From Clostridia bacterium (GTDB lineage: Bacteria > Bacillota > Clostridia > Oscillospirales > Acutalibacteraceae), in assembly GCA_017507805.1 (NCBI GenBank), contig JAFWAC010000001.1:23695-87694 (forward strand): 64,000 nucleotides of DNA, read 5' to 3'. How positions within the stretch are numbered: position 1 is the first letter of the stretch; the number at the start of each line of letters is the position of its first letter. Made by a program: the position numbers and the translations under genes. The notes beneath the pieces are model-generated. The model was not told where the DNA came from and searched no databases. It was given only the letters and a program-made list of their open reading frames with translations. This document shows, piece by piece, positions 3,218 to 10,756 of the stretch.

Positions 3218-4597
3218 ATGATACATTGCTATAAGCTTGGCGGACTTAATATCGTGTTGGATGTCTATTCCGGCTCTGTGCATCTTGTGGACGAGGTGGC
3301 ATACGATATTATCAGTATGTATGAAACTGAAACACTTGAACAGATAACCGAAAAAATTCTCGCAAAATACGGAGCTTTACCCGATGTCACAGCAGAGGAA
3401 ATAAAGGCTTGCTTCGAGGAAATCGGAGAATTAAAGCAGGCAGGCAAGCTTTTTAAGGAGGACACCTTTAAACCGATGGCAGGTGACCTCAAGCAAAAAA
3501 GTGCAGGAATAGTAAAGGCTCTCTGCCTTCATGTGGCACACACCTGCAACCTCAACTGCTCCTATTGCTTTGCAAGTCAGGGCAAATACCACGGTGACAG
3601 GGCAATTATGAGCCTTGAGGTGGGTAAAAGAGCCTTGGATTTCCTTATTGAAAATTCGGGCAGCCGCAGAAATTTAGAGGTTGATTTCTTTGGCGGCGAG
3701 CCGCTTATGAATTTTGATATGATTAAAGAGCTTGTTGCCTATGCCCGAAAGAGGGAAAAAGAAGCCAACAAAAATTTTCGCTTCACCCTGACAACTAACG
3801 GAATTTTGGTTGATGATGAGGTAATCGACTTTGCAAACCGCGAAATGAGCAATGTTGTGCTCAGTCTTGACGGCAGAAAGGAAGTTCACGACCGCTTCAG
3901 GGTTGATTACAACGGAGTGGGAAGCTGGGAGAGAATTGTTCCCAAATTTCAGCGCTTTGTTGAGAAGCGCGGCAACAAAAACTACTATATGCGCGGCACC
4001 TTTACCCACGCAAACCCCGATTTTGTCAAGGATATTGAAGAAATGCTGTCCTTGGGCTTCACCGAGCTTAGTATGGAGCCGGTGGTCTGCGCTCCCGATG
4101 ATCCCTCGGCACTGACCGAGCAGGATTTGCCCATCGTTTTAGAGCAGTACGAAAAGCTGGCATTTTTAATGCTTGACTGCATAAAACAGGGCAAGCCCTT
4201 CACCTTTTATCACTATATGCTTGACCTTAAAAGCGGCCCTTGCATTTACAAGAGGATTTCGGGCTGTGGCTCTGGTACCGAATATATGGCGGTTACTCCT
4301 TGGGGCGACCTTTATCCCTGCCATCAGTTTGTGGGTGAGGAAAGGTTCAGGCTCGGCAATGTATGGACAGGGGTTGAAAACACCGCTGTTCAGGACGAGT
4401 TTGCCGCCTGTAATGTTTACACCCGTCCCGAATGTGAAAACTGCTGGGCAAAGCTTTATTGCTCGGGCGGCTGTGCGGCTAATGCCTATCACGCGACCGG
4501 CTCTGTAAACGGAATTTACAGCTACGGCTGTGAGCTTTTCAGAAAAAGAATGGAATGTGCAATTATGCTTGAAGCGGCAAAGACAGTGGGTAAGTGA
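3218..4597 (+). CDS. scfB: SCIFF radical SAM maturase (SPASM-domain thioether-forming enzyme)
   Basis: 459 aa. CNLNCSYC radical-SAM CxxxCxxC motif. Cys-rich C-terminal SPASM region (CGSG...CHQF...CxxC...CSGGC). Adjacent to the SCIFF peptide. Confidence 0.92.
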   Translation: MIHCYKLGGLNIVLDVYSGSVHLVDEVAYDIISMYETETLEQITEKILAKYGALPDVTAEEIKACFEEIGELKQAGKLFKEDTFKPMAGDLKQKSAGIVKALCLHVAHTCNLNCSYCFASQGKYHGDRAIMSLEVGKRALDFLIENSGSRRNLEVDFFGGEPLMNFDMIKELVAYARKREKEANKNFRFTLTTNGILVDDEVIDFANREMSNVVLSLDGRKEVHDRFRVDYNGVGSWERIVPKFQRFVEKRGNKNYYMRGTFTHANPDFVKDIEEMLSLGFTELSMEPVVCAPDDPSALTEQDLPIVLEQYEKLAFLMLDCIKQGKPFTFYHYMLDLKSGPCIYKRISGCGSGTEYMAVTPWGDLYPCHQFVGEERFRLGNVWTGVENTAVQDEFAACNVYTRPECENCWAKLYCSGGCAANAYHATGSVNGIYSYGCELFRKRMECAIMLEAAKTVGK

Positions 4598-7069: not shown

Positions 7070-7147
7070 ATATGTGTTTACACCATCGGGGTATTAGGTT
7101 GCGATTTTGCAGAATAAAAAGGCGGATAGACCGCGGGGGCACCCCGC
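7070..7147 (-). repeat. repeat module M (copy 1, inverted relative to 35607..35692)
   Basis: Reverse complement GCGGGGTGCCCCCGCGGTCTATCCGCCTTTTTATTCTGCAAAATCGCAAC..ATACCCCGATGGTGTAAACACATAT matches 35607..35692 and part of 57327..57364. Abuts the glmS stop codon. Confidence 0.75.
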
Positions 7148-8970
7148 TATTCCACAGTTACCGATTTTGCAAGGTTGCGGGGTTTATCAATATCACAGCC
7201 GTTATAAAGGGCAGCATAATAGGCATAAAGCTGAAAGGGGATAACCTCCAACGAAGCCGAAAGCAGTGGGTGGGTTTTTGGGATATATATAACCTCCTGT
7301 GCCTCTGCTTCAATGACGGTGTTACCCTCGGTCGCACAGGCTAAAACATCGGCGCCTCTTGCGCGCACCTCCTTAACATTGCTTAAAAGCTTATCGAAAA
7401 GTCTTTCGCAGGCACAAAGGGCTATCACGGTGCGCCCCTCCTCGATAAGAGAGATTGTTCCGTGCTTAAGCTCGCCTGCGGCATAGGCTTCGGAATGAAT
7501 GTAAGAAATTTCCTTTAATTTTAGGGAGGCTTCAAGGGCTACGGCATAGTCTGTATTTCTGCCGATAAAGAAAAGGGAATGTGGATTTCCGCATTTCTTT
7601 GCCGCCTGCTTTATAATCGGCTCTGCTTCAATAACCCTTTTGATTTTTTTAGGTAAAAGTCTCAATTCATCAAAAAGCGCCTCAATTTTTTCACTTTCCA
7701 TTGTGCCAAGCATTCTTGCCGCCCAGACAGCAAAAAGATAAAGCACAGAAAGCTGTGTGGAATAGCCCTTGGTTGTGGCAACCGCAATTTCGGGGCCTGC
7801 CCAGGTGTAGATTACATCGTCTGAAGCCTTTGCGATAGAGCTTCCCACCACATTAACGATTGAAAGCACATGCGAGCCGCGTTTTTTAGCCTCCTTTAAG
7901 GCGGCAAGGGTGTCAGCCGTTTCGCCCGACTGACTTATAACTATGGTAAGTGTTTTTTCATCAACAATCGGGTTGCGGTAGCGAAATTCGCTTGCCAAAT
8001 CAACCTCGGTGGGTATTCTTAAGGTTTCCTCCAAAACATATTTTCCCACCATACCCGCATGATAAGCCGAGCCGCAGGCTATAATTGATATGCGGTTGAT
8101 ATTTTTCAGGCTTTCACCGTTTAATTTTATATCCTCAAAAACAATTTCTCTGCCTCTGATGCGGCTTTCAACCGTTTGAGAAACGGCATCGGGCTGTTCG
8201 TGAATTTCCTTCATCATAAAATGCTCATACCCGCCCTTTTCAGCCGCCGCAACATCCCAGCCCACAACCGATGGCGTGCGCTCCAAGGCAGTGCCGTCCG
8301 CGGAATAAACCGTGACGGAATTCGGTGTTATAAGGGCGGTTTCACCGTCCTCAATATATAAAACCTTTTTTGTATGTGATACTATCGCCGTCACATCCGA
8401 GGCTATTATGTTTGCGTCCTCGCCCAAGCCGATAATAAGCGGGCTGAAATGCTTTGCCGCAACGAGGGTGTCGGGAAAATCGGTGCAAATAATGCCTAAT
8501 GCATAAGAGCCCTCAAGCCTTGCAGTCACTTCTCTTACCGCCTCGATTAAATTTCCCTCGTAATATTTCTGCAAAAGCTGTGGTATTACCTCGGTGTCGG
8601 TCTGACTTTTAAAGCTTATGCCCTCGGCTTCAAGCTCCGCCTTAAGAGAAGCATAATTTTCGATTATCCCGTTATGAACAACAGCAAATTTCATATTTTC
8701 ACTTGTGTGTGGGTGGGCATTTTCAACCGATGGCGCACCGTGGGTTGCCCATCTTGTGTGACCGATACCCAAAGCACCGCCGTCATTATCGAAGCCCTTA
8801 ATTGCTTTAAGCGCCTGCACGCGCTCGACCGTTTTATAAATATTGAATTTATCTTGATTTAAGAGGGCAATACCTGCAGAGTCATAGCCGCGGTACTCAA
8901 GCCTGTGAAGTCCCTCAAACAAAAAATCCTTTGCCGCGCTTTTGCCGGCAAAGCCTACTATTCCGCACAT
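7147..8970 (-). CDS. glmS: glutamine--fructose-6-phosphate aminotransferase
   Basis: 607 aa from MCGIVGF (Ntn-amidotransferase Cys2). Two SIS domains. C-terminal ..AKSVTVE. The upstream in-frame extension to 9024 was rejected. Confidence 0.97.
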   Translation of the reverse strand: MCGIVGFAGKSAAKDFLFEGLHRLEYRGYDSAGIALLNQDKFNIYKTVERVQALKAIKGFDNDGGALGIGHTRWATHGAPSVENAHPHTSENMKFAVVHNGIIENYASLKAELEAEGISFKSQTDTEVIPQLLQKYYEGNLIEAVREVTARLEGSYALGIICTDFPDTLVAAKHFSPLIIGLGEDANIIASDVTAIVSHTKKVLYIEDGETALITPNSVTVYSADGTALERTPSVVGWDVAAAEKGGYEHFMMKEIHEQPDAVSQTVESRIRGREIVFEDIKLNGESLKNINRISIIACGSAYHAGMVGKYVLEETLRIPTEVDLASEFRYRNPIVDEKTLTIVISQSGETADTLAALKEAKKRGSHVLSIVNVVGSSIAKASDDVIYTWAGPEIAVATTKGYSTQLSVLYLFAVWAARMLGTMESEKIEALFDELRLLPKKIKRVIEAEPIIKQAAKKCGNPHSLFFIGRNTDYAVALEASLKLKEISYIHSEAYAAGELKHGTISLIEEGRTVIALCACERLFDKLLSNVKEVRARGADVLACATEGNTVIEAEAQEVIYIPKTHPLLSASLEVIPFQLYAYYAALYNGCDIDKPRNLAKSVTVE

Positions 8971-9086
8971 AAAAAATACACCTTTCCGCTTGTATGGACG
9001 GAAGGGCGCAAAAAATAAACGCACAAAACTGCCGCAAGGGTATAATAACCCCTTGTGTTCCGTACATACAAAAAAATATTTTTTTA

Positions 9087-9230
9087 CAGCATAGCGAACA
9101 CCTTTGTTCCGAAATTACTTTCGGGTTTTGTGCATCCGTTTACGACATGTCTGCCGTGGGGCATCCGCCGAATCTTTCGATGAACCCCAACCTCGTCAAC
9201 CGCTATGCCATATGTACGGTCCCGGCGCTT
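9087..9230 (-). promoter_or_regulatory. glmS ribozyme (GlcN6P-dependent self-cleaving riboswitch)
   Basis: Minus strand reads A/GCGCCGGGACC...GGTTGACGAGG...TCGAAAGATTCGGCGGATGCCCC...CGGAACAAAGG. This matches conserved glmS ribozyme core blocks in the glmS 5' UTR. Confidence 0.88.
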
Positions 9231-9324
9231 GAAATTAATTAAACGGTTTTTTATCCTTTCATTTTATTTTATGGCATATAATCCGCAAACCGAGCATTTT
9301 TTATTTTTTACTCGATTATACTAT

Positions 9325-9353
9325 ATTATACGCGATTATACATAAGATGTCAA
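9325..9353 (-). promoter_or_regulatory. sigmaA-type promoter of glmS
   Basis: Minus strand TTGACA (9353..9348), 17 nt, TATAAT (9330..9325). Confidence 0.55.
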
Positions 9354-9377
9354 TTAAAAAATTTCTATTTTTAGGTG

Positions 9378-9405
9378 TTGACATTATTCGACAATATATT
9401 ATAAT
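9378..9405 (+). promoter_or_regulatory. sigmaA-type promoter of an orphan short transcript
   Basis: TTGACA (9378..9383), 16 nt, TATAAT (9400..9405). Confidence 0.55.
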
Positions 9406-9557
9406 TATAATGTGGAAATCTGCTGTCATTGTCGAACTTGCATCTTCATAGACAGTTGATGGTTAAAAAGGACGGTTGCCTGTGATCCCGCTTGGGCGGA
9501 ATTGAGGTTAAAGTTATAGCCCTTGCGGGAAATTTTTCTCGAAGGGAGCTGATACTT

Positions 9558-9656
9558 ATTACTTTTTCTGTTATACTTGGTATTTGTACCGTCATCGGTA
9601 CGGCTGTAGGAATAATATCGCTTGCGATTTATTTATATGACCGAAAGAAAAAGTGA
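9558..9656 (+). CDS. candidate type I toxin-like hydrophobic peptide (~32 aa; non-ATG start, tentative)
   Basis: Strong SD GAAGGGAG (9541..9548). Open frame ..ITFSVILGICTVIGTAVGIISLAIYLYDRKKK*. One TM helix plus a basic tail. The only plausible start near the SD is ATT at 9558 (9-nt spacing). Confidence 0.3.
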   Translation: MTFSVILGICTVIGTAVGIISLAIYLYDRKKK

Positions 9657-9749
9657 GCCGTCTGCGGCAACAGACGACTCACGGGTTTGAGATAACATCT
9701 CACATCTCAAGTTGTTTTAAGTGCTGTGGCAACCGTCTTGGGTTTCCAC
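9643..9749 (-). ncRNA. candidate antisense sRNA overlapping the 3' end of the small ORF
   Basis: Minus-strand promoter TTGACA (9784..9779), 17 nt, TAATAT (9761..9756). Three predicted hairpins. Terminator GTGAGTCGTCTG-TTGCCG-CAGACGGCTCAC + TTTTTCTTT ends inside the ORF's last codons. Confidence 0.35.
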
Positions 9750-9803
9750 ACCCTTATATTAACACACTATGATTTTTTTGTCAACATTTCTATTGAATTT
9801 TTT

Positions 9804-9830
9804 CCGCACCTTTTTGAGGGGCGGTTTTTT
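9804..9830 (+). terminator. plus-strand intrinsic terminator
   Basis: CCGCACC-TTTTTGA-GGGGCGG followed by TTTTTT. Lies just before the convergent cysK stop. Confidence 0.5.
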
Positions 9831-9835
9831 AATCT

Positions 9836-10756
9836 TTATAAATTAGATAAATAGCGTTCGCCTGTATCGGGCAGGAGGACAACAATCCTTTTATTTTTGT
9901 TTTCCTCTCTTTTTGCAAGCTCAAGCGCCGCAAAAAGCGCCGCGCCCGATGAAATTCCAACCAAAACACCCTCCGTTTTGGCGATTAGTCTTGCGGTGTC
10001 AAAGGCTTGCTCATCCGAAACGGTGATAATTTCATCTAAAATATCGGTGTTGAGGGTATCAGGAACAAAGCCTGCGCCAATTCCCTGAATTTTGTGTGCG
10101 CCCGCCTTTCCGCCTGACAAAACAGGGGAGCTTAGCGGTTCTGCGCCGACAATCTTAATATCAGAATTTTTTTCCTTTAAAAAGCTTCCGACACCTGTAA
10201 TCGTGCCGCCTGTGCCTATGCCTGCAACAAAAATATCAATATTTCCTGCTGTGTCGGCATAAATTTCGTAAGCTGTGGTATTAAAATGAGCCTTTGGATT
10301 ATCGGGGTTTCCGAATTGGTCGGGGATGAAGCTGTTTTCATACTCCTTTGAAAGCTCATTTGCCCTTTCAATTGCGCCCGACATTCCCTTTGCACCCTCG
10401 GTTAAAACAAGCTCGGCACCGTAGGCTGAAATCAGCTTTTTTCTTTCCTCAGACATAGTTTCGGGCATAACAATTATAACCCTGTAGCCCTTAACTGCCG
10501 CAACAAGGGCAAGACCTATTCCCGTATTTCCCGAGGTTGGCTCGATTATAACGGTATCGCTTTTTATAAGCCCCTTTTTTTCTGCTTCAGCCAGCATATT
10601 AAGGGCAACCCTGTCCTTTGCCGAGCCGCCGGGATTGAAAAGTTCAAGCTTCGCAACAAGCTCTGCCTGCAGATTAAAGCGCTTTTCAATATTATAAAGT
10701 CTCAGCAACGGGGTTTTGCCAATCAGCTCCAAAGCGGAGGAATAAATTTTTTCCAT
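9836..10756 (-). CDS. cysK: cysteine synthase A (O-acetylserine sulfhydrylase)
   Basis: 306 aa. PLP-lysine motif [26 protein letters not shown] loop. Confidence 0.95.

Follow-up and report, generated by a model that had tools for sequence, protein, structure and literature searches.

A candidate bsrG/SR4-like type I toxin-antitoxin cassette with a predicted AUU start codon belongs to a widespread family of gut Clostridia and phages

The 64,000-nucleotide stretch of a Clostridia bacterium (Acutalibacteraceae) analyzed here, hereafter the window, carries between glmS and cysK a small self-contained module: a gene for a 32-residue membrane peptide on one strand and a convergent antisense RNA of ~105 nt on the other (Table 1). 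The gap between the two neighbors holds no gene of annotated size. The original prediction had read this region as a candidate type I toxin-antitoxin locus, and all the features on which it was built are present. The promoter proposed for the plus strand agrees with the consensus at 12 of 12 positions, and the one proposed for the minus strand agrees at 10 of 12 and has in addition a TG extension. Both hexamers of the toxin promoter are (nearly) invariant across a 16-unit alignment, and the homologues show TATAAT with TTGACA or TTGAAT at the position of the antitoxin promoter. Promoter-like sites number 8 in the region, against 2.5 +/- 1.4 in shuffled sequences. The gene said to converge on the module from downstream is there, as an open reading frame (ORF) with a pyridoxal-phosphate (PLP)-dependent enzyme fold (Pfam PALP, 273 bits); the match is consistent with its identity as cysK. 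The toxin promoter and the divergent glmS promoter are separated by a gap of only 25 bp.

Table 1. Features of the module and its surroundings in the window. SD, Shine-Dalgarno sequence; sRNA, small RNA; UTR, untranslated region; LR1 and LR2, the two helices that pair the leader with the 3' UTR.
Feature	Position	Strand	Description
Toxin mRNA promoter	-35 TTGACA 9378-9383; -10 TATAAT 9400-9405	plus	16-nt spacer
Predicted toxin mRNA	9412..9830	plus	~420 nt; from GUGGAAAUC.. to hairpin 9804-9824 and U6; fold z = -4.58
LR1, 5' arm	9412..9420	plus	GUGGAAAUC; partner 9741-9749; RNAalifold, 16 units
Leader hairpin 1	9423..9455	plus	CUGUC..GACAG; RNA folds; CCGUU/GACGG in L049 and L053
LR2, 5' arm	9470..9480	plus	GGACGGUUGCC; partner 9728-9738; perfect 10-nt inverted repeat
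Leader hairpin 2	9486..9530	plus	outer stem UCCCGC/GCGGGA, covarying inner stem, conserved apical loop GGAAU(U/G)GAGG; inverted repeat
SD-sequestering stem and extended SD	9536..9555	plus	UUCUC-GAA-GGGAG; GGGAGCUGAUAC; read from sequence
Toxin ORF	9558..9656	plus	32 codons and TGA; predicted start AUU 9558; stop TGA 9654-9656
Hairpin with stop codon in 5' arm; antitoxin terminator stem on minus strand	9653..9682	both	13 bp
3' UTR box	9728..9749	plus	GGCAACCGUCUUGGGUUUCCAC; 3' arms of LR2 and LR1; complement of antitoxin 5' hairpin
Intrinsic terminator candidate	9804..9830	plus	CCGCACC..GGGGCGG (hairpin 9804-9824), then T6; seen in folds
Predicted antitoxin sRNA	9643..9749	minus	~105-107 nt; three hairpins
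Antitoxin promoter	-35 TTGACA 9784-9779; -10 TAATAT 9761-9756	minus	17-nt spacer ending TGT
PLP-dependent enzyme ORF	9836..10756	minus	convergent
glmS	7147-9024	minus	own ribozyme and own promoter ahead
glmS ribozyme	9085-9240	minus	RF00234, 92 bits, complete
glmS promoter	9353..9325	minus	consensus; divergent from toxin promoter

The arrangement is not a product of chance, because the whole unit is kept in other genomes. A lack of conservation as a unit had been named in advance as evidence against the locus; instead, promoter, leader, SD, ORF, stop-codon hairpin, antisense RNA and antisense promoter are conserved together in 16 units from other genomes or assemblies. A back-translated scan of species-representative genomes located the entire unit in two rabbit-gut Clostridia metagenome-assembled genomes (L043 and L044; numbers with L are our handles for loci), and blastn around the genome that holds L043 (G361) recovered it in 11 of 101 genomes, G361 counted. 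A profile of six peptides, used to search 1.84 billion proteins, retrieved 15 cluster representatives (best, 54 bits), all of them unnamed or "hypothetical" and all sharing the motif G-x-[IV]-C-[ST]-[IV]-[IL]; the contigs of these relatives supplied additional units. The alignment of 16 units (A4) has as its (near-)invariant blocks both promoters, the 5' end GTGGAAATC, the box GGACGGTTGCC, hairpin 2 with the loop GGAATGGAGG, the SD, and the blocks AAGAAAAAGTGAGCCGTCTG and GTGGCAACCGTCTnGGGTTTCCACA. The flanking genes differ from unit to unit (non-ribosomal peptide synthetase-like genes, rplS-lepB, RNase J, ABC transporters), and the element is therefore a discrete cassette. Hairpins resembling repetitive extragenic palindromes (REP), of sequence GGGCGAACACGGTTCGCCCCTAC, abut the cassette in three genomes (L043:3270-3300, L044:2862-2886 and 3305-3330, and the flanks of L047), and in L044 one of them touches the -35 box. 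Their CCCCTAC ends resemble the GTAGGG...CCCTAC palindromes of the window.

The start of the predicted toxin mRNA was placed from the -10 box and from the invariant GTGGAAA at which homology begins. Its terminator candidate was missed by a consensus scan because the stem has one mismatch; with this hairpin and its T6 run as the 3' end, the toxin mRNA (~9412..9830) spans the entire antisense gene. In the RNAalifold prediction for the 16 mRNAs, GUGGAAAUC at the 5' end forms a helix with GGGUUUCCAC, and the second leader box GGACGGUUGCC forms one with GGCAACCGUCU, both partners lying in the 3' UTR. LR1 has 9 bp and is paired in 97.2% of the alignment cells; three of its pairs are compensated by changes on both sides, as in AUGGAG../..UUCCAU of L061 or GGAAGCC/GGCUUCC of L062 and L052. 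LR2 has 11 bp and is paired in 99.4% of the cells, with eight invariant pairs and three that show wobble changes only. Slid controls for the two helices were paired in 36-52%. The 3' UTR box that supplies both 3' arms is nearly invariant in the 16 units, and the leader box ACGGTTRCC recurs in 72 of 101 units of the wider collection described below, among the matches listed. The plus-strand terminator of the homologues stands either directly after TTTCCAC (L061, L063 and L064) or past the sRNA promoter (L049, L069 and L070); from the first of these placements it follows that the clamp joins true ends of the mRNA. The comparison argues that a 5'-3' clamp of the toxin mRNA exists.

The SD was described as strong, and it is: GAAGGGAG lies at 9541-9548 and extends to GGAGGnTGATAC, a form that we take to be complementary to the 3' end of 16S rRNA. 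The arrangement around it, a pyrimidine-rich segment, GAA and GGRG, is conserved among the homologues, and the predicted unpaired probability of the SD core is 0.01-0.30 in 13 units. Upstream, the inner stem of leader hairpin 2 changes its sequence from GGGC/GCCC in the window to AGGAGC/GCUCCU in L043, AAGC/GCUU in L053 and GAGAGC/GCUCUU in L049. For this stem, as for leader hairpin 1 and the sRNA, covariation is argued from individual folds and not from pair counts, because the MAFFT alignments of these parts (A3 in the case of the sRNA) were out of register. The apical loop of hairpin 2 presents, in the window and also in homologues, a conserved SD-like GGAAUGGAGG ~45 nt 5' of the real SD, which might act as a standby site or a decoy or take part in pairing.

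On the minus strand, the RNA expected at ~105 nt with three hairpins is borne out by its fold: the segment 9749..9643 reaches -40.6 kcal/mol (z = -4.84), and 0 of 200 shuffles did as well. It begins with a 5' hairpin (GUGG-A-AACC..GGUU-G-CCAC), continues with a middle one, and closes with a terminator that runs into UUUUUCUUU. The terminator was predicted to end inside the last codons of the peptide ORF, which is what is found, as the 13-bp stem 9682..9653 is followed by TTTTTCTTTC and its run of Ts is complementary to the Lys codons AAG AAA AAG at 9645-9653. The sRNA has perfect complementarity to the 3' UTR as well as to the final four sense codons with the stop (~9643-9656). The three-hairpin fold is kept in 13 of 15 homologues, where unrelated sequences build the middle stem (GAGAU/AUCUC, GAGGA/UCCUC, GGAAAC/GUUUCC, GCGAAA/UUUCGC and GGAUGA/UCAUCC). 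In L060 the stop codon has changed from TGA to TAA and the other arm of the hairpin compensates (GUAAGCC/GGCUUAC). Comparison among the homologues points to a conserved sRNA structure. There are also sRNA-only copies that have no adjacent toxin ORF: L052:1851-1961(-), with L056 at the same place, L048:1538-1640, L054 and L057. One stands in tandem behind a full unit and another is 93% identical to the sRNA of L043; these copies may be orphan antitoxins or remnants.

The tiny ORF had been described as one hydrophobic helix with a Lys tail. The frame as read here has 32 codons and a KKK tail, ends in ..ITFSVILGICTVIGTAVGIISLAIYLYDRKKK, and would encode (M/I)TFSVILGICTVIGTAVGIISLAIYLYDRKKK from AUU 9558. 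Its length across the units is 29-35 codons, ending in Lys codons and the stop, and long and short forms differ in frame by 6-9 nt. At the nucleotide level the body of the ORF is the most variable block of the unit, yet it stays open and hydrophobic, and a Cys and the motif G-x-[IV]-C-[ST]-[IV]-[IL] are conserved in the peptides. Nei-Gojobori counts on 26 codons, which left out the sRNA-constrained tail, gave a higher proportion of synonymous (pS) than of non-synonymous differences (pN) in 21 of 21 pairs. Between the window and L060 pS is 0.91 and pN 0.26, with 9, 5 and 20 differences at the three codon positions; for L060 and L070 the values are 0.93 and 0.23. The commonest, sister peptide type behaves in the same manner (2312/1492/3516 differences by codon position; pS 0.62, pN 0.22), and its 23 members with a non-canonical start, among the matches listed, give an identical pS/pN. 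The pattern of substitution argues that the ORF is coding. In L061 (1598-1632) an extra A in the A-run of the Lys codons takes the frame past the usual TGA to end in ..DRKKKSEPSASDR, which may be a genuine variant of the tail or a homopolymer error of the assembly.

The original prediction had itself pointed to the start codon as its weak spot. As it said, no ATG, GTG or TTG stands at a usable distance from the SD, and ATT 9558 is found 9 nt past GGGAG. Its choice of this ATT as the best candidate now has homology behind it, since the codon aligns exactly with an ATG in L062 (GATACAT-ATG-ACT-TTT-TC, against GATACTT-ATT-ACT-TTT-TC in the window). It aligns also with ATT in L060, L052 and L051 and with ATC in L070, and other units have ATG, GTG or a downstream TTG. 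In the copies that start with ATT the synonymous sites are saturated and the peptide is still conserved. Two other starts were considered and rejected: TTG 9492, which has no SD, and an in-frame CTG, GTG or TTG within the extended SD, which abuts GGAGG and is followed by an in-frame TGA in many units.

A wider view comes from a signature of the sRNA, AAGTGAGCCGTCT-N50-80-GTGGYAACCGT. Its matches comprise 101 contigs in IMG/VR and at least 120 from metagenomes, many of them labelled human gut, and lead to at least 205 full units, at least 108 of them distinct; the search for homologous peptide/sRNA pairs that had been suggested thus extends from the 16 full units elsewhere to more than 200 viral and metagenome contigs. 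Since the signature carries no start-codon information, its matches lend themselves to a census of start codons. We took the in-frame codon 6-11 nt (typically 8-9 nt) past GGAGG in 101 intact distinct units, all counts in this paragraph being among the matches listed. The start is ATA in 29 units, ATT in 27, ACG in nine, ATC in four, ATG in six and GTG in two, and could not be assigned in 24, mostly units with rearranged 5' parts. ATA, ATT, ATC and ACG together occupy the start position in 69 of the 77 assignable units (90%); ACG, like AUA, AUU and AUC, is one base off AUG. Many units have an in-frame TGA 2-3 codons upstream, and no canonical start leaves at least 24 residues; the *PYITLQ.. 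form, one example, is on 59 contigs. From these comparisons we conclude that near-cognate initiation would be the norm in the superfamily and that AUU 9558 is the probable start in the window.

The same RNA scaffold carries several peptide types among the matches listed: the window type, ITLQ[DE]VFWIVSI.. (the commonest), ITST.LSVLGALGSIASIV.. and ITLVNIAAICGIL... In IMG/VR and metagenome contigs (L076-L296) at least four unrelated-looking peptide types share the leader, clamp and sRNA. The commonest type, ITLQ[DE]VFWIVSIxWIxxQxWDKFxNxKK, is Trp-rich and amphipathic, and not plainly hydrophobic. Relatives in IMG/VR lie 2-4 kb from terminase, Ant and HNH genes, a neighborhood in keeping with the link already known between type I modules and prophages (PMC6563280); the window copy is chromosomal, between housekeeping genes. 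Blastn of the unit against 36 genomes of the same genus and 24 of the same order matched only AT-rich promoter-like stretches, and a peptide search of 300 genomes of the family matched nothing but transmembrane stretches within larger proteins. By blastn, neither INPHARED phages nor PLSDB plasmids yielded a match. A word-indexed search of a large protein collection with the 54-residue frame returned nothing, with no gene called at the locus. An empty site was sought in six same-genus genomes that have the glmS ribozyme, none of which (0 of 6) has cysK or the module within 1.5 kb of it, and the boundaries of the insertion are therefore not definable.

Comparison with described systems shows what kind of locus this is. 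The original prediction likened it to TxpA/RatA and BsrG/SR4, and the likeness holds for the architecture (3' overlap, closing helix, sequestered SD and Lys tail) and fails for membership in their sequence families. The structure of the bsrG mRNA, experimentally determined, pairs nucleotides 1-35 at the 5' end with 232-262 at the 3' end; a 4-bp stem takes up the SD, the stop codon belongs to the 5' part of a stem-loop, and the terminator stands 1 nt past the closing helix (PMC3834814); SR4 overlaps the 3' end of bsrG, promotes its decay initiated by RNase III and blocks its translation (PMC3834814, PMC6562991). The locus in the window resembles this pair, which resides in the Bacillus subtilis prophage SPbeta (RF01412 is the bsrG mRNA), in its convergent genes and in an antisense RNA that covers the 3' end of the toxin mRNA. 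Both have a 5'-3' closing helix, an SD in a stem of 4-5 bp and a stop codon in the 5' arm of a stem-loop, and loci of the window type share with bsrG a terminator beside the closing helix and a small single-helix toxin that ends in Lys. The four features that mark the bsrG/SR4 design, namely the closing helix, the SD in a short stem, the 3'-overlapping antisense RNA and the terminator beside the closing helix, are all found. The differences are an sRNA of ~105 nt with three hairpins where SR4 has 183 nt and four, and a near-cognate start that bsrG does not have. As for the more general marks of a type I system, a small hydrophobic peptide ORF lies on its own transcript (32 codons, consensus promoter, coding signature), and a cis antisense RNA with its own promoter and terminator is predicted, its elements conserved with covariation.

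Other systems share single traits with the locus. TxpA/RatA has an antisense RNA of ~110 nt over the 3' UTR (PMC2887945) and a ribosome-binding site with long anti-SD complementarity (PMC6562991); the TxpA family, also called the "holin-like toxin" family, has such ~110-nt RNAs in general (PMC2887945). In hok/Sok and aapA1/IsoA1, pairing of the 5' and 3' ends likewise keeps the full-length toxin mRNA closed (PMC8167048). There the antisense RNA acts on the 5' part and processing at the 3' end activates the mRNA, whereas the antisense RNA of the window covers the 3' arm of the clamp, and these systems have no sequence relation to it. The CD-RCd pairs of Clostridioides difficile also belong to the class Clostridia, are often prophage-borne and encode hydrophobic peptides with a Lys-rich tail (PMC6563280); their peptides, of 30-56 residues, come from other families and have no sequence similarity to the window peptide. 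Near-cognate AUU starts are known for infC and pcnB, the only confirmed non-canonical starts in Escherichia coli (10.1101/063800), which are single housekeeping genes, while here a whole mobile family is concerned. In the type I literature a "non-canonical start" means GUG (PMC6562991, PMC8167048).

The genome of the window contains two further candidate type I loci, with peptides of the Hol_Tox kind (Pfam PF16935; gathering cut-off, 23.3 bits). One, L072 (contig C35:65-148(-)), encodes MVTYETLFLFGSLVVAIIALVIDITKKK and scores 33 bits, over the cut-off; the other, L073 (contig C7:26374-26457(-)), encodes the Hol_Tox-like MVTYEELFLLGTLVVSIIALVINITKKK and scores 19.8 bits, below it. Both share the design of the window locus, in that KKK and the stop codon lie inside the antisense terminator and a leader box AGGCGGTTRCC faces a 3' box GGnnAACCGTCT, and both match Rfam BsrG below threshold. 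Hol_Tox-type loci start with ATG, unlike the window locus. A composite of the two kinds occurs in L059 (G428:C2, on the toxin-sense strand), where a Hol_Tox-like ORF MVTYDGLFIFTTLIVGIIGLCYTIFSKKK of 20 bits with its own variant clamp boxes is followed by the 5' part of a window-type sRNA, whose hairpin leads into A7 and not into a U-tract.

The locus is probably a type I toxin-antitoxin-like cassette built like bsrG/SR4 of B. subtilis, and it belongs to a previously undescribed, widespread bsrG/SR4-like family of gut Clostridia and phages that has new peptide and RNA families. The original interpretation is in this respect supported; the transcripts are predicted, and toxicity and antitoxin action are presumed. 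In the working that we propose, the strong promoter would produce the ~420-nt mRNA, whose first nine nucleotides and second leader box would pair with its own 3' UTR box and close the molecule. The SD would be half-buried in its small stem and extend into a near-perfect anti-SD complement. Translation of the 32-residue single-helix membrane peptide with its Lys tail would begin at the near-cognate AUU 9558, and for this reason only a trickle of peptide would be made; that the ORF is translated we infer from its coding signature, and the start codon from homology. Toxin synthesis is known to be braked by ribosome-binding sites that are sequestered or "too perfect" and by start codons that are weak (PMC6562991, PMC8167048). 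The convergent promoter would give the three-hairpin ~105-nt RNA, with the Lys codons as template for the U-tract of its terminator. On the model of RatA and SR4, this RNA would bind through loop contacts and zip up, opening the 5'-3' clamp and forming a long duplex for RNase III, with degradation of the toxin mRNA as the outcome. Without the sRNA, ribosomes would translate the stable closed mRNA, and its product would harm the membrane; that the peptide is toxic to membranes is presumed from the known systems.

Several points weigh against this reading. The Rfam type I families, RF01412 BsrG included, gave no match over 8900-10000 (E up to 10) nor in L053 and L062 (E up to 1); in these genomes only the Hol_Tox-type loci match Rfam BsrG, at 24-28 bits against a cut-off of 55. 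The window peptide does not match Hol_Tox at E up to 10 and is absent from the six-frame genome search with that family. The highest-scoring of 15 family members reaches 12.5 bits, and a profile-profile comparison by hhalign aligned the KKK tail alone. Pfam and NCBIfam scans with the 54-residue and 34-residue forms and the homologous peptides gave sub-threshold noise only, and no known toxin family. As the Hol_Tox and Rfam tests fail, the locus is like bsrG/SR4 and TxpA/RatA in its working and is not a member of them by sequence. AUA, AUU and AUC initiate at ~1-2% of AUG in E. coli (10.1101/063800), and the window copy could therefore be nearly silent. LR2 is poor in covariation information, because it is almost invariant. 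When the 3' UTR was blocked in silico (constrained partition-function folding, 13 units), SD accessibility did not change consistently; a translational arm like that of SR4 is therefore unsupported and has been dropped from the model, and the extension of the SD stem known for SR4 has no computational sign in units of the window type. The element is single-copy, with no paralogue in the genome of the window by DNA or peptide; blastn did not find the unit in the 36 same-genus genomes; and a match to the signature is present in just 4 of 401 genomes from the order, a distribution that is therefore patchy. The evidence for the family is comparison and prediction, with toxicity and neutralization argued by analogy.

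With toxicity argued in this manner, the peptide might instead be a regulated small membrane protein that is not toxic, for instance a factor of superinfection exclusion or a phage-related modulator of the membrane, whose level the antisense RNA merely tunes. Toxicity does vary in the TxpA family, being absent from YhzE-2 and confined to B. subtilis for TxpA (PMC2887945), a near-cognate start implies very low dosage, and many relatives lie in phage contigs. We nevertheless consider this unlikely. All the brakes usual for type I toxins are in place, in that the predicted mRNA is closed, its SD is buried and its start weak, and a perfectly complementary sRNA of its own has a strong promoter; different peptide cargos ride on the same RNA scaffold; and decayed and sRNA-only copies occur, as they do at toxin-antitoxin loci.

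The sRNA-only copies (L048, L054, L056 and L057), together with the ATT that the window has where L062 has ATG and the broken ORFs in 7 of 108 distinct units among the matches listed, could suggest that the window copy is a disarmed remnant that has lost its ATG and in which only the sRNA functions, e.g., as an anti-addiction antitoxin against phage-borne cassettes that enter the cell. The census makes this a poor explanation: near-cognate codons hold the start position in most assignable units, many units have the upstream in-frame stop and no usable canonical start, ATT-start copies conserve their peptide at synonymous saturation (the window against L060, and L060 against L070), and the ORF, SD and promoters of the window are all intact. 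We judge it improbable, somewhat more so than a non-toxic protein. Very improbable indeed is a purely non-coding pair of convergent RNAs with an incidental open frame. It would account for the lack of a canonical start codon, for a leader and 3' UTR better conserved than the ORF, and for the absence of a called gene at the locus in the large protein collection; it would leave unexplained substitutions that fall at third, then first, then second positions with pS above pN, in-frame indels, a conserved Cys and G-x-[IV]-C-[ST] motif, an SD fixed 8-9 nt from the candidate start, and ATG or GTG at that position in some members. We retain the reading of a bsrG/SR4-like type I cassette.

Type I systems are barely known in Clostridia beyond C. 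difficile (PMC6563280), and for this class reviews list, besides those of C. difficile, just a small number of TxpA-like or Fst-like matches (PMC6563280); T1TAdb has 24 families (PMC8594479). The present family adds hundreds of loci in human-gut and animal-gut metagenomes and in phage contigs, loci that gene callers mostly miss because their ORFs have no ATG, GTG or TTG. For the annotation of such cassettes in gut genomes and prophages, the signature of the sRNA and the profile of the peptides can serve as tools, and the bsrG-type closed-mRNA design is now seen far outside Bacillus. The unexpected feature is the family-wide use of near-cognate starts, which makes the family a natural system in which to test bacterial near-cognate initiation by comparison. 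A broader proposal, on which we find ourselves evenly divided, is that these units form a large unannotated superfamily of type I cassettes in gut Clostridia and their phages, with one RNA scaffold, interchangeable peptides and near-cognate starts placed by design 8-9 nt behind a near-perfect extended SD; it would then be the first family in which initiation at codons that are not AUG, GUG or UUG is the rule. If this is true, near-cognate starts could tie toxin synthesis to the fidelity of initiation, for example to the activity of initiation factor IF3, and the cassette could serve as a sensor of stress or phage infection.

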